From NCBI GenBank assembly GCA_041661745.1, contig JBAZTR010000001.1, forward strand, positions 186,471 through 250,470: DNA of 64,000 nucleotides, read 5' to 3'. The notes below the pieces were generated by a model that did no database searches, was not told where the DNA came from, and was given only the letters and a program-made list of their open reading frames with translations. Shown here in pieces: positions 15,737-48,254 of the stretch (positions are counted from its first letter, which is position 1; each line of letters starts with the position of its first letter). This stretch comes from Patescibacteria group bacterium. Its GTDB lineage: Bacteria > Patescibacteriota > Patescibacteriia > UBA9934 > GWF2-40-263. Both the position numbers and the translations under genes were made by a program.

Positions 15737-18244
15737 TTAAGCTTTTTTCCTTCGACGAAACGCGAGTATAAATAAACTTGCAAAAGGCAACAGGAAAGAA
15801 ACCGGCAAGCCAGTACGCGGCAATTCATCAGTCGCCCCAAGAACCATTGGCTCCGGAGTAACAACGGCCGGATCAGCCACGACCTCGGCTTCGTCGGTTA
15901 CACCAAGAACCATTGGTTCTGGCGCAGTGACGGCCGGATCAGCTATATCTTCTTCGTCAGCTTCGTCGGTTACACCAAGGACTGTTGGTGTAGGGGTTGA
16001 GGAACCACTGGACGATGTTCCCCCATGACCGCCACCAGTGCCGATTTGGTGATCTTCGATCAGAATTGTAACTTCATAATTTTGATTGGCTGCCATAGTC
16101 ACCACACCAACATTATTACAATCACCACTTATGACAACACTATATCCATCTTCAGCCGAAGCCATAACCAAAGAATCGTCAATCACTGGTTCTTCTGAAC
16201 CTTCGTGACCGTCAAAAATTTCATAAATTTTATATTCGCCAGGAGAAAAATCAGTTTTTACATCTTGTGAAACCACGGTTTCCCCAGCGTATAAAGTGAA
16301 ATCGTAAGGTGTAAAATTATGTCCGTCGTTATTACTAATCTCAAGATGAACGGTTAAATGTCCGTTTCCATCAGAATCGTCACCCATAACATCTTCTAAA
16401 CCACCTGAATCAATTTCACCACCTGACTCGTCGCCACCCTCTCCACCCTCTCCACCCTCTCCACCCTCTCCACCCTCTCCACCCTCTCCAAAATCACCAT
16501 CAATACCACCGATTTCACCTTCAGAATCATCACCTGTTTCTTCTTCCTCTTCGGTTTCTTCGTCGCCACTCCCGTCATCTTCTATAATTTCATCATCACC
16601 CAATTCCTCATCTCCGGTTTCGTCGTCGCCTGTCTCGTCAACAATTTCATCACCGGATTCGTCGCCACCCTCTCCGCCCTCTCCAAAATCACCATCAATA
16701 CCACCGATTTCACCTCCAGAATCATCACCTGTTTCTTCTTCCTCTTCAGATTCATCATCGCCGGTTTCATCATCGACCTCTTCACCTGATTCGTCTTCGC
16801 CTTCACCGCCTTCGCCACCCTCTCCGCCCTCTCCAAAATCACCATCAATACCACCGATTTCACCTTCAGAATCATCACCTGTATCGCCGGTTTCTTCTTC
16901 TTGAGCAATATCATCGTTTATAATCGTACATTTTTTTTCATCACCAGGGCCAAGAGTAATCGAACCGTCGGCAGCACAATCACCATTAATTGTGGTTGTA
17001 TAAAGGCTTGATCCACCTTCAGAAACGGTATAAGTACCAAGAGCAAACTCGGTGGCCACATCATTGCTGACCGACACACCATCAACGAAAAGTGGAAAAT
17101 TTTCAGCAGTCATCGTTCCGCCATTGTCGTTGATAACTGTTTCAGTAACAGTTAATGTTGGCAAAATAGCACTATTTGTAAAACTACAAGTAGCATTAAC
17201 AGGTTCTGTCCCGGCTTCAACCGTGGTTTGGGCCGTCTCTCCATCGAATTCACAATTATCACCGCCCCAGGCAGTTAAAGAATAACCAGAAGGACCAGAT
17301 TCAACGATAGTATAAGTTCCGGCTGGGACATCTGTAATTATTACCGAGGACGAACCGTCTTCAATATCAAAAGTTGTTTGATCGTTAATGGCCGGCGAAA
17401 CAACAAATGACCATTCATCAGCCGAATCCGGCCCACTGGCCACAGTCTTCATTAAAGTTAAGGTTGGCAAAACTGTAGTTTCGTCTTCTTCAGCATCTAC
17501 TGGATTAATGGAAATTGTTTCTTTGGCAGTATCCAATTTGACACTCAAAGACGAACCAGGAAATTCGCTTGCTTCTGATCCAAGACGAGCACAAAGATAG
17601 ACATAAGCGGTTTGATTTCCTGGAATATCTTCAAGAGCAATATTGTAATATCTTTGTGCATCGGTTGATGTGGTTGAATCACCATCATCACTGGAAAATG
17701 GTCCGGTAACAACGGCCGAAACCGAACTCCCATCGCTAACCGGAAAAGTCATGGAAGAAAACGAGGTAGCCGGATATAAAAAATCACTCAAATCATCGGC
17801 ATCGTGTGGCGCGGTAAGCGAGGTGGAAATTCCTTCGAAATCTGTAATACCTAAATAGCCGCTTTTATAATAATCAAAAGAGAGACCAAATGTTACGTCA
17901 TCTGTTGAAGCGATTTTGTTCTCAACATCCACAAGAATAGGGACACAGGAGCCTTCGGGATAATTGGAAACATTTCCGTTATTAAAAGAACCGGATCCAC
18001 TTTGTCCAGAGCTAGAAATCGACACGGAGTCAGCATCAAAAACATACATGGATTCAGTTTTAACTGCCGCTCCGGCCAATGGAACAAGAAATGTTTGAGC
18101 GACAAGAAAGCACGAAAGGATGCAAAAGCTTAAAGAAGATTTTACAGAGGACGACCGAACTTTCGATATCCAAGATCGTCCTTTCTTAACCTTTTTCATA
18201 TCAAAAATATTAACTTTTTGATTAAAAATAATAATTTTCTCCAC
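15737..18244 (-). CDS. LPxTG-type cell-surface protein (LPRTG sorting signal) with acidic Gly/Glu low-complexity repeats
   Basis: The 835-aa product has an N-terminal signal/TM and a C-terminus ...ATDELPRTGLPVSFLLPFASLFILAFRRRKKA. The middle is GEGGEGGEG/DESGEE repeats. Confidence 0.75.
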   Translation of the reverse strand: MEKIIIFNQKVNIFDMKKVKKGRSWISKVRSSSVKSSLSFCILSCFLVAQTFLVPLAGAAVKTESMYVFDADSVSISSSGQSGSGSFNNGNVSNYPEGSCVPILVDVENKIASTDDVTFGLSFDYYKSGYLGITDFEGISTSLTAPHDADDLSDFLYPATSFSSMTFPVSDGSSVSAVVTGPFSSDDGDSTTSTDAQRYYNIALEDIPGNQTAYVYLCARLGSEASEFPGSSLSVKLDTAKETISINPVDAEEDETTVLPTLTLMKTVASGPDSADEWSFVVSPAINDQTTFDIEDGSSSVIITDVPAGTYTIVESGPSGYSLTAWGGDNCEFDGETAQTTVEAGTEPVNATCSFTNSAILPTLTVTETVINDNGGTMTAENFPLFVDGVSVSNDVATEFALGTYTVSEGGSSLYTTTINGDCAADGSITLGPGDEKKCTIINDDIAQEEETGDTGDDSEGEIGGIDGDFGEGGEGGEGGEGEDESGEEVDDETGDDESEEEEETGDDSGGEIGGIDGDFGEGGEGGDESGDEIVDETGDDETGDEELGDDEIIEDDGSGDEETEEEEETGDDSEGEIGGIDGDFGEGGEGGEGGEGGEGGEGGDESGGEIDSGGLEDVMGDDSDGNGHLTVHLEISNNDGHNFTPYDFTLYAGETVVSQDVKTDFSPGEYKIYEIFDGHEGSEEPVIDDSLVMASAEDGYSVVISGDCNNVGVVTMAANQNYEVTILIEDHQIGTGGGHGGTSSSGSSTPTPTVLGVTDEADEEDIADPAVTAPEPMVLGVTDEAEVVADPAVVTPEPMVLGATDELPRTGLPVSFLLPFASLFILAFRRRKKA
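16395..16905. repeat. tandem coding repeats (9-bp CCACCCTCT units and about 150-bp units x3) inside the LPRTG protein gene
   Basis: Visible direct repeats ccaccctctccaccctctcc... and three copies of ...tctccaaaatcaccatcaataccaccgatttcacc... Confidence 0.7.
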
Positions 18245-35725: not shown

Positions 35726-36610
35726 TCAATGATTAGCCGCCCAACAAAACCAATAAGCCGTGGTCAGGGCCACTTCGTTTTCGTTCTTGTCATATCCTTT
35801 CACAGTTTCCAATTCCTCATCCCAAACAAAATCAACTTCCGTGCCACTAATAGTTTTGGCACTTTTAATATTATCTAGCGGAAAAACCTCCGAACCGTAA
35901 CTGTAGACAATGGTTTTGGCCGGATAACTCGAATCGTATTTATTCAACGGATACCAAACCGCCGGCGTGGCTGCGTAATTGCCGTATGGATTATGCGAAT
36001 AATCGCGAGCTGAACCGGTTTCGCGCGACAACACATAACCATTGGGAAAATTTTCTTTGAACGATTGCCAGGTCATGACATAAGAAGGAATGGCCGAAAG
36101 GTTATCGCCGGTCTCGGGAAGAGTTTGACCGTCAAACGAACGCCAAAGTAAATCTGTTTCTTCGGCCGTAAACAACATGGAGTTGTTATAAATTTTTCCG
36201 GAATTTTTAAAAAGCCTTTCGCTTTCGAAAACGGCCGCACTGCCACACAACGGATCATAAGAAACTAAAATCGACGAACCGTTCCAAACATCATTAACCA
36301 AATTGTGCCAAACCAAAATCTGAAAAGGATAAAACCTCGCCTGTCCCCTGCCCCCTATCCCCTCCAAAACAAGACCAAGCCCTTCATTTAACAAATAAGT
36401 GTCGGCCAACGGAACTGATTCGAAATCAGAATCATTAAGAGCAGGACGCGAGTCGTTGTCTGAACCTGTATCTATTATCGAATCTTCCAATCCTGGCTGA
36501 ACCAGATTTCGTGGCGGCAAGTGATTAAAATACTCAAAAACAAAAAAGCCGACAAAAATCGCTAAAATAACAAAAATGATCAATTTTCTCTTGTTTAAGA
36601 ATTCCTTCAC
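35726..36610 (-). CDS. hypothetical protein (DUF3179-like?), N-terminal TM
   Basis: 294-aa product. The family assignment is by vague recollection only. An internal G-tract encodes GIGGRGQARF. Confidence 0.4.
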   Translation of the reverse strand: MKEFLNKRKLIIFVILAIFVGFFVFEYFNHLPPRNLVQPGLEDSIIDTGSDNDSRPALNDSDFESVPLADTYLLNEGLGLVLEGIGGRGQARFYPFQILVWHNLVNDVWNGSSILVSYDPLCGSAAVFESERLFKNSGKIYNNSMLFTAEETDLLWRSFDGQTLPETGDNLSAIPSYVMTWQSFKENFPNGYVLSRETGSARDYSHNPYGNYAATPAVWYPLNKYDSSYPAKTIVYSYGSEVFPLDNIKSAKTISGTEVDFVWDEELETVKGYDKNENEVALTTAYWFCWAANH

Positions 36611-36617
36611 ACAAAAA

Positions 36618-36671
36618 TAGAATATCAGAAAAAAATAATACCGGCCACCTGGGGTTGAACCAGATGGCCGG
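36618..36671 (-). terminator. rho-independent terminator of the high-GC IPT/TIG gene
   Basis: On the minus strand CCGGCCATCTGGTTCAACCCCAGGTGGCCGG forms a hairpin, followed by TATTATTTTTTTTCT. Confidence 0.65.
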
Positions 36672-36680
36672 AGAGGTGCC

Positions 36681-37757
36681 CTAGCGGTGGCCGGGGGCGG
36701 CGACGATCCCGTTGATCGGAGCGGGCGGAGCGAGTCCCTCCTCGATCGAGTTGGCCACCATAGTAAGTCTGCCGGCGATCAAGGCAGCAGCCAGGAGGAT
36801 CGCCAGGACCACGCTCCCGATGACCGCCGGAACCACCCACGGCTTCATGGGGGCCGGCGGGACGGCCGGGGCAGGAGGCTCGGGCGGCGGGGGCGGCTTG
36901 GCCATGTGCGGCGTCAGCTGGTCGACCACCTCCTTAACGGCCTTGCCGACCATCTCGCCATTCCGGATCATCAGGTCGCCGACGATCTTCGGATCAACGC
37001 CGGGCGGGATCGCGATGACCGGAGCGGCGACTCGCGAGGCCGAGCCCGCGGGCGGGGTCGAGCTGCGCGGAGGAGGCGACGGCGGCGGGGCGGCGACCTT
37101 GGTCTTGAACGTGAAGGCGTCCGCCAGGAAGACGGACTCGCCACCGTTGTTCTTGACCTCGACGCTCGCCACTCCGACCGGGAAGGCGGGAGTCTTGGCC
37201 AGGATCTTGGTGTCGGACACGAACCGGATGTCCGTGCCGACGACCTTGGTCGCGGGCGTGAAGAAGAACACCTGGCAGTCGGCCGTGAAGCCGCTGCCGG
37301 TCACCTCGACCTCGAGGCCACCAGTCTCCTCGCCCTCGGTGGGCGTGATGGAGGTGACGGCGAGAACGGGAGGCGGTGGGGGCGGAGGCGGCGGTGGGCT
37401 GCTGATCGCGACGACCCAGCCGACCGCTCGGGCGTGGGCGAGCGCCCGATCCTTGAAGTCGGGCCGCCAGTCCCGGATGGCCTCGAGCTCGGTCATGATC
37501 TCGGCCTCGGAGCGGTTGGCCGAAGCCACGACCAGCTCCTCGACCTTGCAGATGATGTCGATGACCGTGGTGTCATCGTTGCCCAGCGCGGCCGCTTTCG
37601 TGAACTTGTCCGCGACATCGACCGAGACGTTGTCCCACTCGGTGAACTTCCAGGCCATGAGCGAGCTGAAGTCGCCGGCCGGGCTGGGGGCAGACCAGAT
37701 GGCCACGGCCGCATGGAACGCGGCCTGCTGTTCTGGGGTGAGGGTAGTGATGTCCAT
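36681..37757 (-). CDS. high-GC surface-type protein with an IPT/TIG-like Ig domain, poly-Pro linkers and a C-terminal TM anchor
   Basis: The 358-aa product has PPPPPPPPPP; an Ig-like segment VTSITPTEGEETGGLEVEVTGSGF...VFFF...IRFVSDTKILAKTP...VEVKNNGG..SV..D.FTF; and a C-terminal hydrophobic stretch AVIGSVVLAILLAAALIAG. GGAGA lies before the ATG. The long + strand ORFs here are Arg-rich antisense artefacts. Confidence 0.6.
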   Translation of the reverse strand: MDITTLTPEQQAAFHAAVAIWSAPSPAGDFSSLMAWKFTEWDNVSVDVADKFTKAAALGNDDTTVIDIICKVEELVVASANRSEAEIMTELEAIRDWRPDFKDRALAHARAVGWVVAISSPPPPPPPPPPVLAVTSITPTEGEETGGLEVEVTGSGFTADCQVFFFTPATKVVGTDIRFVSDTKILAKTPAFPVGVASVEVKNNGGESVFLADAFTFKTKVAAPPPSPPPRSSTPPAGSASRVAAPVIAIPPGVDPKIVGDLMIRNGEMVGKAVKEVVDQLTPHMAKPPPPPEPPAPAVPPAPMKPWVVPAVIGSVVLAILLAAALIAGRLTMVANSIEEGLAPPAPINGIVAAPGHR

Positions 37758-37908
37758 GGTATCTCCGGGGTCAGGGAGGGTGGGAGAAGGTGCATCAAAC
37801 AGCCGAAAAACCGGCCGAATGAACAGAGAAAAATATCACATTTTCCAAAAAAAGTCAAGAATCTTATCAAAAACAAAAATTTATCAAAAAAAGAATTTCC
37901 TTCTAATC

Positions 37909-37938
37909 TTGACAAAAACCAAAAAATGGGCTATTTTA
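37909..37938 (+). promoter_or_regulatory. sigma70-like promoter (TTGACA, 17 nt spacer, TATTTT) in the AT-rich divergent spacer, driving the 38065 gene
   Basis: cTTGACAaaaaccaaaaaatgggcTATTTTact. A strong SD GGGAGGA lies 6 nt before the ATG at 38065. Confidence 0.45.
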
Positions 37939-38064
37939 CTTAGCTCGAATTGAGCACAAGGTAGTTAGCTCCCTAAACAATTCACCCAATTCGTTCGTAA
38001 GTTTTTTTGTCGTAATTCTTCGCCAGAACGCTGAACACACCCGAACCCCGAAAGGGAGGACAAA

Positions 38065-39222
38065 ATGAGCGAGATCAACATCCTGGATCTCTGGGCAGCA
38101 ACCGGCATCATGGAGGCGCTCCTGCCCCTGATCCGAGAGGTCGACAAAAGGTTCGTCCCCGAGGACCACAACCTGACCTACAACCAGGTCGAGTGGAGCC
38201 GTCACGGCGACGGATGCATCGGAAGCATCATGCTCGTCGACGAGGACGGCAAGGATCAGGAGATCGCCTGCTACCCGATCTCGACCAGGTGGAACGTGGA
38301 CATCACCACCCCCCACATGGTACTGGCCTTCCAGGTCACCAGAAGCAACAACGAACCCGAAACCGAGGACGACCTGAGCGACGGTCGCTGGTACGCCATT
38401 CCGGTCGGTCTGGCACCAACCTCGATCCGGACCAAAGTCGAGAGGGCCTTCCAGGAAGTCGGCCTCCTCAACGGTCGTCTCCCCGGCCTCAAGCCGCACG
38501 AGTGGGACGACTCTCCGGAACGCCGGTTCAACCTGGTCTTCCAGCGCCGGCGCGGCGACATGATCGCCTGGTACCAGGGGAAGGTCTGCGTCCTGGTCGA
38601 AGGTTCGCCAATCCCCAAGCCCGGCAAGGAGGTCATCTGCGAAGTGGTGACCGAGCGCCTGAGCAAGGTCGTCGTCCGCTGGACGGGCATGACCGTCGAG
38701 CAGGCCAGGAAGAGGATCGACGAACAGCGACGCCTGGCCGGTCTCCGAAGCAGCATCCGCCGGGCCGCGCGCGTGGAGCGACCCGAGCTCAAGGATCCCG
38801 TGGCCGCCATGGGGCTCGAGCCGGACAAGCTGAGCGGCGGACGCCTCAACAGCGCCTACCGCCGGCTGCGCCAGCAGGTCCCGACGACCGAGGAGGAGGC
38901 CGGCGCCAACCCGCTGGCCAAGGCCATGGTCGAAGTCGGCCTGCCCTTCCAGGCCGACAACCTAGACTGGCCGGTGTTCTACGCCGAGTACCTCGACCGG
39001 GCCGACCGGGCCGCGGTCCAGGTCCTCAAGGACAAGCGCACGAAGGAGCGCGAGGAGGCCGAACGCACGGCCACCCCGCCGCCCGTCGAGCCCGCCACCG
39101 AAGGCGAGGGCCACGAGGAAGCGGTCGCCGACCTCGACACCGCCGACGAAGACCTCCTGGTCGAGGAGTCGACCGACGACGGCTCCGCCCAGCCCCGCGA
39201 GGAGGGCGCGAACGCGAAGTAG
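38065..39222 (+). CDS. high-GC hypothetical protein (385 aa, acidic C-terminal tail)
   Basis: A long ORF with a strong RBS and its own promoter and terminator. No motif recognised. The C-terminus is Glu/Asp-rich. Confidence 0.55.
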   Translation: MSEINILDLWAATGIMEALLPLIREVDKRFVPEDHNLTYNQVEWSRHGDGCIGSIMLVDEDGKDQEIACYPISTRWNVDITTPHMVLAFQVTRSNNEPETEDDLSDGRWYAIPVGLAPTSIRTKVERAFQEVGLLNGRLPGLKPHEWDDSPERRFNLVFQRRRGDMIAWYQGKVCVLVEGSPIPKPGKEVICEVVTERLSKVVVRWTGMTVEQARKRIDEQRRLAGLRSSIRRAARVERPELKDPVAAMGLEPDKLSGGRLNSAYRRLRQQVPTTEEEAGANPLAKAMVEVGLPFQADNLDWPVFYAEYLDRADRAAVQVLKDKRTKEREEAERTATPPPVEPATEGEGHEEAVADLDTADEDLLVEESTDDGSAQPREEGANAK

Positions 39223-39254
39223 ACGGACTTCCCCGTCAACTTCACGTCCCACAC

Positions 39255-39293
39255 GGCCGCTGTGCACCTAGTGCATGGCGGCCTTTTTCTTTT
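39255..39293 (+). terminator. rho-independent terminator (GGCCGC..GCGGCC hairpin plus TTTTTCTTTT)
   Basis: A GC hairpin lies 33 nt after the 39222 stop, followed by a T-run. Confidence 0.6.
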
Positions 39294-39363
39294 ACAAAAA
39301 TTTATGACTATCGACCGTGACTGTGGTATAATATTTAAAACAAAAGAAAATAAAAAAACTTTT

Positions 39364-40143
39364 ATGTCTATTTATCCAAATTGGAAAGGCGAAAGAGTGT
39401 ACGCTATCGCCGTTTTCGTACTCATTGTGAGCGCGATTATTTATCTCGGCGTAAAAATTGACAACATTGTCCGACAATCAAAAGAAGTCGGTCAACCCAC
39501 GCCCTATGAACATACAATCATGATTGAAGGCGAAGGCACGGTTACTGGTAAGCCAGATATTGCCACTTTTGTCATGGGCACGGAAAGCCATGGGGTCGAT
39601 GCGGCCGCGGCACAAACCGCCAATAGCACCATCATGAATAAAATTATTGAAGATACTAAGGGCTTAGGAATTTCTGAAGACGATATTCAAACTTCCGGCT
39701 ACAATATTTACGAAGATCTTCAATGGAATTCGGACACTGGTGATTATGATTCAAAAGGATGGATCGTTTCCAACTATGTCACGGTTAAAGTCCGCGATGT
39801 TTCCAAACTTTCAACCGTCTTAGCTATGGCCGGTCAAAATGGCATTACTGATATTTCCGGTCCAACTTTCACAATTGATGACACCACTAATTTAAAGGCC
39901 GAGGCCAGAACCGAAGCTATTCAACAAGCGCAAACCAAAGCGCAAGCTATTGCCACAGCCCTTGGTATGAGAATTGAAAAAGTTGTTGGTTACAGCGAAT
40001 GGTCCCCTTCGATTTATGACTACTCATATGCTTATGGTATGGGTGGGTCAGACGAAAAATTAAGTTCAGCCATGCCATCTATCGAGGCCGGTTCAACCGA
40101 AGTTTCACTAACCGTTTCCATCACTTACAAATTGGCCGAATAA
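39364..40143 (+). CDS. SIMPL/DUF541 domain protein (26 kDa periplasmic immunogenic protein-like)
   Basis: The product has an N-terminal TM, then IEGEGTVTGKPDIATF...GWIVSNYVTVKV...GPTF.IDD....AR.EAI..A..KA in the SIMPL pattern. The start was moved to MSIYPNW. The ORF track's earlier start lies in the high-GC terminator. Confidence 0.65.
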   Translation: MSIYPNWKGERVYAIAVFVLIVSAIIYLGVKIDNIVRQSKEVGQPTPYEHTIMIEGEGTVTGKPDIATFVMGTESHGVDAAAAQTANSTIMNKIIEDTKGLGISEDDIQTSGYNIYEDLQWNSDTGDYDSKGWIVSNYVTVKVRDVSKLSTVLAMAGQNGITDISGPTFTIDDTTNLKAEARTEAIQQAQTKAQAIATALGMRIEKVVGYSEWSPSIYDYSYAYGMGGSDEKLSSAMPSIEAGSTEVSLTVSITYKLAE

Positions 40144-44665: not shown

Positions 44666-44822
44666 AAGCGCGGTGATGATAACTGGTTTTTGGCTAATTG
44701 TCAATAATTTATTTTACGAGAAGAGCCTTTAAACGTCTTTTACGGTTGACATTTGTTCTTTTTCATAGTATCGTTATGGGCCGTCAAAATGACGAAGTTC
44801 CTTCAATCCCCTTTCTTATCGA

Positions 44823-46027
44823 TGGAGAAACCCATGCCCACGGAACGTATCGAACAAGCCCTGGCCTATTGGGAAGACATCTGCGTGCTGGAACGTCATC
44901 TGGCCATGCTAGAGGCCTTGCGTAAAAAGAAAAAATTCGAGCCCAAAGGGCCACTCAAGTACCTCGGATTCAGACAGGTCCTTGAAGAAGGCCTGGGGTG
45001 GAGCTTCGAATTCCTCTACGAGGGTGACCGAAAATCGTTGCAGGCAATGAAGCTGCTTCCGTTGATGATCTACGCCTGGATGTACTCATCCAAACGTGTC
45101 TTCCGAATGTCGTCTAAAACGATCGACGAACTGCTTCGCGAAGACCATCGACCGCCACCGTGCACCTGGGGAGAATTCCCCTGGCCGTTCGAGGCCTTCG
45201 TCGTGTCGTTCGAAACACCGCTACACCTACGACCAGAAGCCGATGGGTCTTACGACACCCTGATTGTCGTGAGTATCGTGCGCGATGGACACATGACTCT
45301 GTTGCTGCAGTGGTTGCCGGTTTTTCTCACCGAGTATCAACCGCTGACAGGCAAGGAGACGAGCGAAATGCTCATCGATCTTGGCGAAGAGGTTCGCCGA
45401 GGTCGCGAAGAGGTTCGCCAGGCCGGCGATGCAATCTTGGCCAAACTGCCCCGCAAAGTGCGTCGCCTACTAAAACGACAAAACCTGACGGCCGCCGCCG
45501 AGAAAACGGTCGGGTATACGGACGAAGAAATCGATCAATTGATAAACAACGACAAAGAGTACCTCCATTTGATCAGCTTTCCGGCCTTCCTGATTGATCG
45601 GGGCCTCTTCAGCGTAATCGGAGATCTGAACGAAAAGATAAGCGAAGGACCGCTTATGCGGCTCATCTATTCCTTCTGCAATCTCATCGCCAACGGAACA
45701 CGCGTAACTGAGGTTGTCGGAAGATCGAAACATCCAAAGACCGGCTCGTCGCGTAGCAACGACTTCACCGACGGGGCAAATATCTTCGAAGTCGGCTCGC
45801 AAACTGAATTCGCAAGTGGTGTGCGAACCAGGCATGCCTCCGACGAGCCGTCGGGTCGTACGGTGCGTCCGCACCCGCGACGCGGCTTTTACCGTCGCCC
45901 GCACGGCAGTGACCTCGAAGCGCCCAAGTCTGAGTGGGTAAACTCCACGTGGATCCACAGAGACGAAGCCACAAACAGGGGTCTACTCCCTGTATGCGAA
46001 ATCGTCGTGGATACGTCCAAGACTTGA
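44823..46027 (+). CDS. high-GC hypothetical protein (about 400 aa)
   Basis: A long ORF in a 60%+ GC segment that begins abruptly about 70 nt after typA. The precise start is uncertain. No motif recognised. Confidence 0.5.
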
Positions 46028-46037
46028 CCCTACCCTA

Positions 46038-46100
46038 CCCAGTCCGCCAAGACTGGGATTTTTTTATAAACAAAAAACAACCCTCCACGAAGGAAAGTTA
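46038..46100 (+). repeat. direct repeat A: terminator module CCCAGTC-CGCCAA-GACTGGG plus T7, then AAACAAAAAACAACCCTCCACGAAGGA(A/G)AGTT
   Basis: The 62 nt are identical to 47139-47201 except 1 nt. The first hairpin with its U-run looks like an intrinsic terminator. Confidence 0.75.
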
Positions 46101-46188
46101 TCTTTGATGACTCAATTGACGGTTTGTTTTAAAACATTTATACTCGATCAGCCGTAGAATTAAACGGCAAACAAAGAGAGGCTCCTTC

Positions 46189-46443
46189 ATGAAGATCAAA
46201 CGGTTCTTGTTGGGAGGGCTCGTCTTCCTCTGCATCCCCTTCCTCGCGGGCATCGACTGCAAGAAGCGGCTCGACTGCGCCGAAGAACACGTGGCCTGCG
46301 ACCAGCGCTGTGCCGAGGCGGCCAGCACCACCGGTCAGAACATCGTCACCACCTACTTCTACTGCAACGAGTTCACCGGCGATGTCGTCTGCGAGTGCGG
46401 GCTCGGCCTGGACTACGGCAGCTTCGAAACCTGTGAAGGCTAG
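46189..46443 (+). CDS. small secreted cysteine-rich peptide (signal peptide plus 8 Cys), high GC
   Basis: MKIKRFLLGGLVFLCIPFLAGIDC... has a lipobox-like LAGIDC. The mature part has 8 Cys in about 60 aa. AGAGAGG lies before the ATG. Confidence 0.55.
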   Translation: MKIKRFLLGGLVFLCIPFLAGIDCKKRLDCAEEHVACDQRCAEAASTTGQNIVTTYFYCNEFTGDVVCECGLGLDYGSFETCEG

Positions 46444-46457
46444 GAGGAAGAACCACC

Positions 46458-47087
46458 ATGCTCATGCTTCTCGCCATCACCATCAGTGCCCTCGCGGGTA
46501 CCTACCACGTGAACTTCCCGATCGTCAGCGGAGCTCCGACCAATCCGCTCGATGACGTCTTCGTCCTCACGGTCTCGGCGTGGGACCTCGACCAGAACCA
46601 GCAGAACGGGATCTACGACTCGAGCTGGCGCTTCATCAAGTGCGAGGCCAAGGACGGCGACCTCTACGTCCACTTCACCGGGAAGAAGACGGACTGGCCG
46701 ACCAGCTGGCCCCAGCAGGTCACCTGCTCGGGCTATGGCAACACCCTGGTCGTACACCCGGTGTCTCCGAGTGTGTACGAGCCGAGCATGATCGAGATCA
46801 CCGGCGACGACGAGATCTACTTCACGATGGCCACGGGGATCACCAAGCTCCGGACCATCAAGATCCCGGACGGCGACTACGACGTCGAGAGCTGCTTCGC
46901 GGCCCACGACGACAACGACGATCTGTGGAGCGGCGTCACCTGTGACCCGATCGCGAGCGACGACGACAACTTCGTGCGCGTCTACATCACCGGCGATGCG
47001 GCCGCGGGAACCGGAACCTGCGTCATCCCGGGGTTCAACAACACCCCGGACCTGACCATCACCATCAACCTCGACGGGCGTCCCTAG
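46458..47087 (+). CDS. secreted hypothetical protein, high GC, immediately after the Cys-rich peptide
   Basis: The 209-aa product has an N-terminal hydrophobic signal MLMLLAITISALAG. It starts 14 nt after the previous gene behind GGAGGA. No motif recognised. Confidence 0.5.
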   Translation: MLMLLAITISALAGTYHVNFPIVSGAPTNPLDDVFVLTVSAWDLDQNQQNGIYDSSWRFIKCEAKDGDLYVHFTGKKTDWPTSWPQQVTCSGYGNTLVVHPVSPSVYEPSMIEITGDDEIYFTMATGITKLRTIKIPDGDYDVESCFAAHDDNDDLWSGVTCDPIASDDDNFVRVYITGDAAAGTGTCVIPGFNNTPDLTITINLDGRP

Positions 47088-47138
47088 GTAGCCCCTCACC
47101 TCCTCACGCTACACATCGCAAGACGGTGTAGCGCTGAG

Positions 47139-47201
47139 CCCCCAGTCCGCCAAGACTGGGATTTTTTTATAAACAAAAAACAACCCTCCACGAAGGAGAG
47201 T
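47139..47201 (+). repeat. direct repeat B (copy of the terminator module at 46038-46100)
   Basis: See repeat A. Further hairpins follow (GCCAGTTTAACTGGC, AGAAAAAGCTTAGCTTTTTCT) and a 12-bp inverted repeat CACCAAGCTGAG/CTCAGCTTGGTG ends at the tRNA. Confidence 0.75.
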
Positions 47202-47320
47202 TGTTTTTAGTGAGCCAGTTTAACTGGCTTCACCAAGCTGAGTCTGAATTTTATTCTAGGTGCACCAGAGAAAAAGCTTAGCTTTTTCTCTTACAACAGA
47301 ATAAGAAACCAAGCTCAGCT

Positions 47321-47395
47321 TGGTGACCCCACCGGGAATCGAACCCGGATTTGCGCCGTGAGAGGGCGCCGTCCTAACCGTTAGACGATAGGGCC
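47321..47395 (-). tRNA. tRNA-Glu (anticodon CUC), CCA encoded
   Basis: The minus strand reads GGCCCTA-TC-GTCT-AACGGTTA-GGAC-G-GCGCC-CTCTCAC-GGCGC-AAAT-CCGGG-TTCGATT-CCCGG-TGGGGTC-A-CCA. The cloverleaf is complete, with U33, A37 and a canonical T-loop. Confidence 0.85.
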
Positions 47396-47638
47396 ATTAT
47401 AATTGCCATCTTTTAATTGTTTACGAATGAACCCTGAATTTTTTATTTGTTTTTCCCTTTGCAAAGCCTCTGTTTTACTCTGAAATTCCTCAGTATAAAT
47501 TAACTTATAAGGTCGATATGGTTTTGTTGATTTTGTTTTTCCACTATTGTGTTGTTTCAATCTTTTGTCAAGGTCAGCAGATGAACCTATATATAATCGT
47601 TCATCTTTTTCACTTTGTAAAACATAGACAAAATACAT
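47381..47638 (-). CDS. GIY-YIG nuclease (small UPF0213-type, homing-endonuclease-like), 3' end overlaps the tRNA 5' end
   Basis: The product MYFVYVLQSEKDERLYIGSSADLDKRLKQHNSG...PYKLIYTEEF.SKTEALQREKQIK is the classic GIY-YIG module. Its last 5 codons (GPIV plus stop) are encoded by tRNA positions 1-15. Confidence 0.8.
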   Translation of the reverse strand: MYFVYVLQSEKDERLYIGSSADLDKRLKQHNSGKTKSTKPYRPYKLIYTEEFQSKTEALQREKQIKNSGFIRKQLKDGNYNGPIV

Positions 47639-47648
47639 AGTTTTCAAA

Positions 47649-47709
47649 GGCGCCGTCCTAACCGCCCGGCGGAGCCGGGTCCGGCTTCGCCGGATTAGAC
47701 GATAGGGCC
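47649..47709 (-). pseudogene. duplicated tRNA-Glu 5' half (acceptor/D-arm/anticodon-stem 5' strand) with a 30-nt GC-rich hairpin insertion in the D-loop
   Basis: The minus strand reads GGCCCTATCGTCTAA[TCCGGCGAAGCCGGACCCGGCTCCGCCGGG]CGGTTAGGACGGCGCC. This equals positions 1-31 of the downstream tRNA and stops at the anticodon stem, directly abutting the GIY-YIG start. Confidence 0.6.
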
Positions 47710-47824
47710 GTTTTGACGCTGACTAAGATAACACAAAAAAAGTTTTTTGTCGAGGATTGACACAAAGCCAATTTTGTTATATTTTCATTTGTCGACACTT
47801 TTCCTCTCCAACCTGGAGGTATCG

Positions 47825-48100
47825 ATGAATCGCCACAAGTTTCTGGTCACAAGTGCACTCTTGGGGTCTCTGGCCGGCATCTCGTGGTTCGCGATGCTGG
47901 TCACAGCACCCGTGTCCATAGTTCTGCTCGTCTCCTCCACTCAGCTCATCGAGAAGTACCTGGGCGAGTGGTGGTCCTGCACCATCCTGCCCTTCGCCCT
48001 CGTGTACCTCGCGTACAACATCGTGATCGGGGGAACGGCCGCCTTCTGCTACCGGCGCTACATGCGACACACCCGCAGTGCCAATGCGGTCGCCTCCTAG
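47825..48100 (+). CDS. small high-GC membrane protein (two or three TM helices)
   Basis: MNRHKFLVTSALLGSLAGISWFAMLVTAPVSIVLLV... follows GGAGGT 6 nt upstream. The ORF track starts at 47747. Confidence 0.5.
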   Translation: MNRHKFLVTSALLGSLAGISWFAMLVTAPVSIVLLVSSTQLIEKYLGEWWSCTILPFALVYLAYNIVIGGTAAFCYRRYMRHTRSANAVAS

Positions 48101-48254
48101 CCTCCCGCACACCCGCTCGGTTGAGCCAACCATTGGCTCCCGACGGGTGCGCTTTTGTTTTAATTTGGTTTATTGACTTTTTTACTTTCTTACTCTATAA
48201 TTTTTTGTCCGATGTTCCTTCACATCATAGCCTCACAGATTAACCGAGGTCCAC

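Follow-up and report, generated by a model that had tools for sequence, protein, structure and literature searches.

A GIY-YIG gene lies between an orphaned tRNA-Glu fragment and an intact tRNA-Glu gene

We analyzed a 64,000-nucleotide (nt) stretch of DNA from a Patescibacteria group bacterium (GenBank assembly GCA_041661745.1, contig JBAZTR010000001.1, positions 186,471 to 250,470; here called the window, with coordinates counted from its first base), centering on a small GIY-YIG nuclease gene that adjoins a tRNA-Glu gene. In minus-strand order, the locus comprises a promoter-like site, an interrupted 5′ fragment of tRNA-Glu, 10 nt of junction sequence, the GIY-YIG open reading frame (ORF), an intact tRNA-Glu(CUC) gene, and a terminator-like hairpin. 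An earlier reading of the sequence alone (the original prediction) had described this order of genes, and all of its elements are present on the minus strand, although the fragment begins at 47709 and not at 47712.

The fragment is composed of two pieces, tRNA nt 1 to 15 (47709..47695) and nt 16 to 31 (47664..47649), both on the minus strand. Each is 100% identical to the intact gene. The two pieces (D1 and D2) form direct repeats of the intact tRNA whose spacings differ by exactly 30 nt. Flush between nt 15 and nt 16, in the D-loop, sits a GC-rich insert of 30 nt, TCCGGCGAAGCCGGACCCGGCTCCGCCGGG (47694..47665, no strand assigned). The original prediction placed a 30-nt GC hairpin here; the position was right, but the insert consists of two tandem 6-bp hairpins that jointly make up an imperfect palindrome. 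This 30-mer occurs once in the window (matches in 0 of 100 shuffled sequences), and neither a second copy of it nor a second GIY-YIG gene was found in these 64 kb. Nt 31, where the fragment stops, is also the final base in the 5′ strand of the anticodon stem, and a 10-nt junction, TTTGAAAACT (47648..47639, minus strand, read directly from the sequence), leads to the start codon.

The ORF encodes 85 amino acids (minus strand, 47381..47638 including the stop, with ATG at 47638 and TAA at 47383..47381) and matches Pfam PF01541 (E = 2.4e-20). Its 3′ end reads ...AAT GGC CCT ATC GTC TAA, and its last four sense codons plus the stop codon are nt 1 to 15 of the tRNA, as had been proposed. The intact tRNA-Glu(CUC) gene (47395..47321, minus strand) was called by ARAGORN and scored 59.9 bits against the Rfam tRNA model.

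Candidate transcription signals were located by a consensus scan. The promoter-like site, TCGACA-17 nt-(TG)TATCTT, lies on the minus strand at 47725..47753, ahead of the fragment, and the same motif recurs in a related locus (L097) described below. Apart from this site, no well-placed promoter-like site for the tRNA was detected in the scan, nor was any terminator-like site detected between the upstream promoter and the tRNA; promoter-like matches were present within the ORF. Among these, a minus-strand TAAACA-16-TATAAT match (47396-47423) occupies the 3′ end of the ORF and stops one base short of tRNA nt 1. This match is probably fortuitous because it is too close to the tRNA for its transcript start, and it lies within AT-rich coding sequence. 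The terminator-like hairpin (47324-47308, minus strand) has 7 bp followed by a T-rich tail and overlaps the 3′ end of the tRNA. A 12-bp inverted repeat had been described as abutting the 3′ end of the tRNA; it is present and perfect (47267-47291) but lies about 30 nt away, and the hairpin at 47324-47308 is what abuts the gene. In the same scan, the hairpins of the spacer near the tRNA resembled ordinary terminators. The spacer also contains an 11-nt direct repeat, ACCAAGCT(G/C)AG, at 47232-47242 and 47308-47318, one copy of which overlaps the terminator-like hairpin; being short, it may have arisen by chance.

Related loci retain the uninterrupted tRNA

A gapped DNA pattern of the tRNA-Glu 5′ half retrieved 19 metagenome loci, 18 of which have the same tRNA 5′ half and no GIY-YIG gene. 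One of these, L097, is syntenic with the window (nucleotide identity of 80 to 85% for BipA and 74 to 79% for a Mur ligase gene). At L097, TCGACA-N17-TATCTTA stands at the same distance directly before an uninterrupted tRNA-Glu(CUC) gene that is 100% identical to that of the window, with no GIY-YIG gene. L097 is an empty site, and two further empty-site loci (L098 and L099) likewise carry a tRNA 100% identical to the window tRNA-Glu. Since the promoter in L097 directly precedes the intact tRNA, the orphaned fragment in the window marks the original tRNA start, and the site at 47725..47753 is the ancestral tRNA-Glu promoter, now ahead of that fragment.

Relative to the empty allele, the window has gained the 30-nt palindrome at nt 15/16 and a 269-nt block at nt 31/32. 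The block comprises the 10-nt junction, the ORF, which accounts for 258 of the 269 bases, and a second copy of tRNA nt 1 to 31. These two gains left the old 5′ part as an orphan next to the native promoter, and a complete tRNA was restored downstream. Comparison with related genomes thus bears out the proposal of a free-standing GIY-YIG gene inserted in a tRNA gene that was remade by partial 5′ duplication. The nineteenth locus, L105, has kept a fragment that is interrupted by a double hairpin at nt 13/14, but of an ORF only the final ~35 codons remain; it is a decaying copy.

Relatives found through the adjacent PMT_2 glycosyltransferase gene were only 45 to 47% identical and had different neighbors, and two loci carrying the same palindrome (L001 and L002) showed no synteny with the window. 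Compared with L097 (6085-6204), the module of promoter and tRNA-Glu in the window (47321-47753) has the opposite orientation with respect to BipA and Mur ligase, the conserved flanking genes, and the genes between these flanks differ. The BipA-Mur ligase interval looks like a rearrangement hotspot.

The encoded protein resembles minimal Slx1/UPF0213-type nucleases

The PF01541 match scored 73 bits against a cutoff of 22.6. The protein is identical to one annotated at NCBI in a Patescibacteria metagenome-assembled genome (366-kb contig). Across 64 relatives, Y5, Y16, G18, R26, H30, and E62 were invariant or nearly so, and the conserved columns take in the residues expected to be catalytic in a GIY-YIG domain; no conserved Asn after E62 was found among these columns. 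The catalytic domain spans all 85 residues, leaving no DNA-binding domain.

In a profile search of solved structures, the best matches were 1ZG2 (BH0048) and 1YWL (EF2693), both UPF0213 proteins (E about 1e-15), followed by Slx1 (E about 1e-6), with I-TevI marginal (2e-3). An AlphaFold2 model of the protein (predicted local distance difference test score, 88) gave a concordant ranking in Foldseek: 1ZG2 was the top match, Slx1 came next (template modeling [TM] score of 0.66 to 0.70, root mean square deviation of 2.2 to 3.0 Å), and I-TevI reached a TM score of 0.5. The N terminus scored 26.8 bits against TIGR01453, the NCBIfam model of group I intron endonucleases, which is below its cutoff of 56. 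By sequence and modeled fold, the window protein is predicted to be a minimal Slx1/UPF0213-type (YhbQ-like) GIY-YIG nuclease, further from I-TevI, and the idea of a classic homing endonuclease was not supported. A 2006 phylogenomic survey assigned 1ZG2 and 1YWL to the Slx1 family and described its bacterial members as minimal domains without the C-terminal Asn of the UvrC/homing lineage (PMC1564403). Many homologs end in translated tRNA 5′ ends, for example GPIV, GGVA, VVQRIE, and WPRSSTE. Carriage of the family by phages was rejected, with only three weak matches.

The gene is linked to tRNA genes across a family of loci

To place the window in context, 80 genomic loci were gathered purely by protein similarity, using a 14-sequence alignment, and the window was counted as the 81st. 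These loci come from Bacteroidota, Patescibacteria, Ignavibacteria, and a few other groups. An intact tRNA gene lies on the same strand within 400 nt downstream of the ORF in 71 of the 81 loci, and the tRNAs are of five types: Arg (with five anticodons), Ser, Glu, Met, and Lys. The stop codon falls inside the tRNA in 39 of these 71 loci and 0 to 24 nt ahead of it in 18; of the other 14, most have an ORF that instead adjoins a tRNA copy with a palindrome. A fragment of the same tRNA lies just upstream of the ORF in 69 of the 71 loci, the arrangement seen in the window.

The upstream fragments usually begin at nt 1 and most often end at nt 29 to 54, with the start codon usually 2 to 20 nt further on. 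The original prediction had set the end of the fragment in the classic insertion zone of tRNA introns. The window fragment does end at the 5′ strand of the anticodon stem, but end points across the family range from about nt 15 to nt 75. For the window and about half of the pairs, the duplication begins precisely at nt 1, and this start was accordingly dropped as a general rule. Identity reaches upstream of nt 1 in about 19 of 59 pairs; in the cases inspected, the reason is that a match to the ORF 3′ end precedes the fragment, as happens in tandem units.

Several copies may occupy one genome. At L083 (9570-11355), five near-identical tandem units of 339 nt precede an intact tRNA-Ser(CGA), each with a tRNA-Ser fragment bearing an anticodon-loop hairpin and then an 80-residue GIY-YIG ORF. 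A sixth copy on the other strand has the mirror order: intact tRNA-Ser(GGA), ORF, and a 3′ tRNA fragment whose T-loop bears a hairpin. L053 and L059 likewise have tandem units of ORF and tRNA, together with full-length tRNA copies bearing one or two palindromes. The protein tree sorts partly by tRNA type, with switches; a Lys-associated copy, for example, is nested among Arg(TCT) copies. The junction from ORF to tRNA nt 1 (AAAAAT|GG) is kept across the Arg and Lys loci of that clade, and the left junction is variable.

The ORF is under purifying selection (ratio of nonsynonymous to synonymous divergence, 0.10 to 0.17), with synonymous differences of 0.4 to 0.7 within lineages that share the same tRNA. 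In Flavobacterium, the leader ahead of the fragment has diverged past alignment, and the fragment and palindrome are nearly invariant, with the acceptor-stem bases of the fragment covarying with the resident tRNA. This near-invariance and covariation imply gene conversion or selection. Flavo-1 RNA (RF01705) matches were noted in two Flavobacterium loci (L053, 3068-3153; L007, 680-822), about 0.7 to 1.3 kb from the cassette; they are probably unrelated neighbors.

A GC-rich palindrome interrupts the tRNA copies at loop positions

The hairpin, which the original prediction treated as incidental, proved to be a conserved component of the family. A flush insertion splits the tRNA sequence in nearly every fragment examined, and the tRNA copies of the family contain 82 such precise inserts, nearly all of them GC palindromes. 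In Bacteroidota, the insert is a perfect 20-nt palindrome, CCTGCCTGCCGGCAGGCAGG, or a variant of 16 to 55 nt that shares its arms; variants of 29 to 55 nt have the same 10-nt arms around a variable core. It usually lies between TA and G at nt 21-22/23 or 26/27 and elsewhere at 9/10, 13/14, 32/33, 38/39, or in the T-loop. The insert of Patescibacteria and Ignavibacteria is built of two, sometimes three, GC hairpins of 5 to 6 bp. Family-wide, insertion positions are 7/8, 9/10, 13/14, 15/16, 22/23, 26/27, 32/33, 35/36, 38/39, and the T-loop, almost all of which are loop or junction positions of the cloverleaf. These insertions were accompanied by neither target duplication nor loss of bases.

Both orientations occur, the 30-mer of the window being reversed at nt 22/23 in L002. 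In L001, a pseudo-tRNA-Glu carries the 30-mer twice, at 7/8 and in the anticodon loop. Among 237 kb of loci, all 78 of 78 palindromes of the Bacteroidota type fall in tRNA-like sequence (65 by an automated flank test and 13 by inspection). The sequence of the palindrome follows the host and protein lineage, and its arms do not flank the ORF itself. Some palindromes lie in 3′ fragments located past the ORF or the tRNA, and others in solo tRNA copies with no adjacent ORF. Full-length palindrome-bearing copies of tRNA-Arg were mapped at L046 1359-1473; L059 1368-1461, 1747-1840, and 2098-2192; L053 1742-1836; and L079 1880-1991. They carry one or two 20-nt palindromes, are elsewhere 96 to 100% identical to the functional copy (most segments 100%), and in some cases are still called as tRNAs by Rfam (36 to 49 bits).

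Pairing within the hairpin units is kept by compensatory changes across lineages (97.8% of cells paired, double changes in four of six pairs), and the observed score was reached by none of 500 shuffles, although the units were picked by eye, which favors this outcome. No Rfam family covers the palindrome. With the palindrome in place, uninterrupted homology between fragment and tRNA reaches 16 nt in the window and does not exceed 36 nt elsewhere.

A selfish tRNA-associated cassette is the favored interpretation

We favor the interpretation, with a probability of roughly 0.6, that the locus is an instance of a widespread, selfish cassette associated with tRNA genes, in which a minimal Slx1/UPF0213-type GIY-YIG gene is combined with a short GC palindrome. 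The tandem units at L083, L053, and L059, the decaying copy at L105, the spread over five tRNA isotypes, and the multiple copies per genome all point to selfish behavior.

How the cassette moves, and what the palindrome does, we infer as follows. The ORF would be transcribed from the tRNA's own promoter (47753-47725) jointly with the tRNA, which RNase P would cut from the 3′ end of the joint transcript; this cut would remove the stop codon of the ORF and may limit the amount of nuclease. Since the nuclease has no DNA-binding domain, it probably recognizes structure rather than sequence, candidates being cloverleaf or cruciform junctions or forks stalled at highly transcribed tRNA genes. It would break unoccupied tRNA genes, and repair from an occupied copy, in which the orphan fragment and the intact tRNA would serve as left and right homology arms, respectively, would copy the ORF into the empty allele. 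The palindrome, by breaking the fragment up so that no stretch exceeds 36 nt, would make it a poor partner for ORF-deleting recombination with the intact tRNA, and possibly also stops the fragment from being a target.

Several points weigh against this interpretation. An 85-residue catalytic domain has no obvious means of recognizing a specific site, and because the rebuilt tRNA does not differ from the presumed target, the model gives no account of self-immunity; the source of the palindrome and the chemistry of its insertion are likewise left without account. Cleavage, transcription, and transfer by the cassette are themselves steps of inference. Flavobacterium and Pedobacter-type lineages keep the gene at the same tRNA, at a synonymous divergence of 0.4 to 0.7 and under strong purifying selection; such residence looks long and vertical, and could reflect a function useful to the host rather than pure selfishness. 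The fragment is nearly identical to the resident tRNA and covaries with it as the leader diverges, and gene conversion or selection of this kind is not demanded by the model. Finally, the protein tree rests on about 70 residues and is poorly resolved.

The palindrome could instead be the primary mobile unit, a 20- to 30-nt "ends-only" microelement that the Slx1-like nuclease would excise and insert into single-stranded loops of tRNA genes in a transposition-like manner, with the nuclease gene as its autonomous partner and the tRNA duplications as collateral rearrangements. The clean insertions at many loop and junction positions, the occurrence of one 30-mer in both orientations, the constant arms and variable cores (as in miniature inverted-repeat transposable elements [MITEs]), the solo copies, the lineage-specific sequences, and the compensatory changes would all be expected of such an element. 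Yet we know of no GIY-YIG enzyme that performs strand transfer, the ORF is not bounded by palindrome arms, and all palindromes found in the window or in the 237 kb of loci were in tRNA copies beside these genes. Survivorship could also account for their ubiquity, as fragments without a palindrome may be deleted. We therefore regard a palindrome-first origin as unlikely. Still less probable, and disfavored here, is a host device acting at the RNA level, in which fragment and hairpin form a cis-acting leader (a tRNA mimic, processing site, or antitoxin-like RNA) that controls the nuclease or the tRNA, and the gene is an ordinary member of a tRNA operon. The cotranscription predicted from the layout, the preservation of fragment and palindrome far beyond that of the surrounding leader, the covariation of the fragment with the tRNA, and a strongly selected ORF long resident at one tRNA are consistent with this explanation. 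It sits poorly with a cassette that is patchy and absent from orthologous sites elsewhere, with tandem amplification and decayed copies, with fragment ends scattered from about nt 15 to nt 75, and with palindromes in either orientation, of which those in 3′ fragments past the ORF or tRNA cannot serve as a 5′ leader. Moreover, the predicted stability of the folded window leader was within that of shuffled sequences (z = −1.1), and GIY-YIG enzymes are DNases (PMC1564403).

The remaining two explanations derive from the original prediction. That the tRNA duplication and hairpins are the attachment site of a larger island, formed by the high-GC genes at 44.7 to 47.1 kb, would agree with the GC content at 45 to 47 kb (55 to 58%, against about 45% elsewhere), with the gene content between BipA and Mur ligase, which differs between the window and L097, and with the common use of tRNA genes as integration sites (PMC9897764). 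However, the duplicated part is the 5′, promoter-side part of the tRNA and lies 300 nt off rather than across an island; no repeat of the tRNA 3′ end exists in the window, the two adjacent ORFs tested contain neither an integrase nor any other Pfam domain, and the spacer hairpins fit terminators. The island idea is not supported, and we consider it very improbable. A degenerate or collapsed group I intron with a GIY-YIG homing endonuclease, or an assembly artifact of one, is scarcely credible. It would fit the edge of the anticodon loop at which the window fragment stops, the weak N-terminal resemblance to TIGR01453, and the frequency of tRNA group I introns in Patescibacteria (PMC13011429), although the 2026 survey that reports these introns names neither GIY-YIG nor tRNA-Glu. 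An Infernal scan of 46800-48200 returned, at E ≤ 10, only the tRNA and chance-level matches and no Rfam intron. The insert is nearly all ORF, and the protein is of the Slx1/UPF0213 type. Because the tRNA after the ORF is complete, it does not require splicing. Dozens of independent assemblies share the layout of the window, and related genomes, including the syntenic L097, have no intron at the site. Fifteen related loci likewise yielded no group I intron at the Rfam gathering threshold, only tRNAs and the two unrelated Flavo-1 matches. With neither a ribozyme core nor an interrupted downstream tRNA, the identification as a group I intron is largely refuted.

Implications of a tRNA-associated cassette

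If the cassette is selfish, the bacterial Slx1/UPF0213 branch, regarded as repair-type and vertical, holds a large selfish lineage living in tRNA genes. An essential gene would then have been entered harmlessly with neither ribozyme nor recombinase, by a partial 5′ duplication that rebuilds it, and the palindrome would be a short repeat with a very narrow target range, namely, the loop positions of tRNA-gene copies. A more tentative and rather doubtful extension is that these loci represent a new class of mobile element, in which a structure-selective Slx1-like nuclease and a palindromic microelement of 20 to 30 nt target loop junctions of tRNA genes, preserve the tRNA by duplicating part of its gene, and label each spare copy with the palindrome. 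A bolder variant would have the palindrome-bearing full-length tRNA copies still in use, their hairpins being tolerated or removed at the RNA level. Such loci yield tRNA fragments, hairpin-bearing pseudo-tRNAs, and ORFs that end in tRNAs, by which automatic annotation is confused. Cultivable carriers of the cassette exist in Flavobacterium, Pedobacter, Polaribacter, and Sphingobacterium.

Other features of the window

Two segments of the window, 36000-39500 and 45000-47100, have a GC content of 55 to 64%, compared with about 45% for the genome. The ORFs of the second segment (44753-46027 and 46458-47087) had no Pfam match, and no mobility gene was seen there. On the minus strand at 15737-18244, an 835-residue protein with an LPRTG-type C-terminal sorting signal is encoded. 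It holds an acidic Gly/Glu/Asp repeat (9-nt unit CCACCCTCT, 6.3 copies, plus longer repeats), which is the cause of a strong GC-skew spike at 16 to 17 kb.

Comparison with known systems

A full-text literature search, which could not reach subscription-only papers, returned no published account of the linkage between gene and tRNA or of the palindrome. Several known systems share individual traits with the cassette. Repetitive extragenic palindromic (REP) sequences, bacterial interspersed mosaic elements (BIMEs), and MITE-type repeats are short GC-rich palindromes that occur in either orientation and whose length variants share terminal arms. The palindromes of the cassette differ from them in being confined to tRNA-gene copies beside one gene family, in lacking target duplication, and in not being dispersed. 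MITE and REP elements are expected to have many dispersed copies, with a target-site duplication (MITEs) or an associated HUH transposase (REP); the window itself contains a single, flush copy within a tRNA fragment.

The closest sequences and folds are those of the UPF0213 proteins (BH0048, 1ZG2; EF2693, 1YWL; Escherichia coli YhbQ) and eukaryotic Slx1, which share the minimal domain and the nonconserved C-terminal Asn. The Slx1 family has been described as repair-type and mainly vertically inherited (PMC1564403), and linkage to tRNA genes, tRNA fragments, and palindromes has not been reported for it in the searchable literature.

In their way of life, the free-standing GIY-YIG genes of T4-like phages, such as SegB in the tRNA cluster (PMC2330249), are similar: they are small selfish genes among or next to tRNA genes and outside introns, with a patchy presence and a spread presumed to occur by break-induced gene conversion. 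As in homing endonucleases, the window-type gene is patchy, with intact empty alleles (L097 to L099) and a decayed copy (L105), but it encodes no C-terminal DNA-binding domain. Seg proteins, by contrast, have about 200 residues or more, a DNA-binding domain, and an origin in the I-TevI/UvrC lineage, compared with the 80 to 90 residues and Slx1/UPF0213 type of the window-type protein. Seg genes are also phage-borne, whereas the cassette resides in the bacterial chromosome and combines a partial tRNA duplication with a palindrome.

Group I introns in tRNA anticodon loops, some of them with homing endonuclease genes, are also insertions in tRNA genes, are known from the same phylum, and preserve tRNA function (PMC13011429). 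They do so by a ribozyme and splicing, whereas the cassette keeps function by 5′ duplication at the DNA level. Integrase-driven islands and prophages (PMC9897764) resemble the cassette in that the inserted DNA lies between a complete and a partial tRNA copy, but their size is 9 to 23 kb or more, they possess a recombinase gene, and it is usually the tRNA 3′ end that they duplicate. No recombinase domain was found in the neighboring ORFs tested, and no repeat of the tRNA 3′ part in the window. The insert of the cassette measures about 270 nt and encodes no recombinase; mostly the 5′ end of the tRNA is repeated, and the partial copy bears a palindrome.

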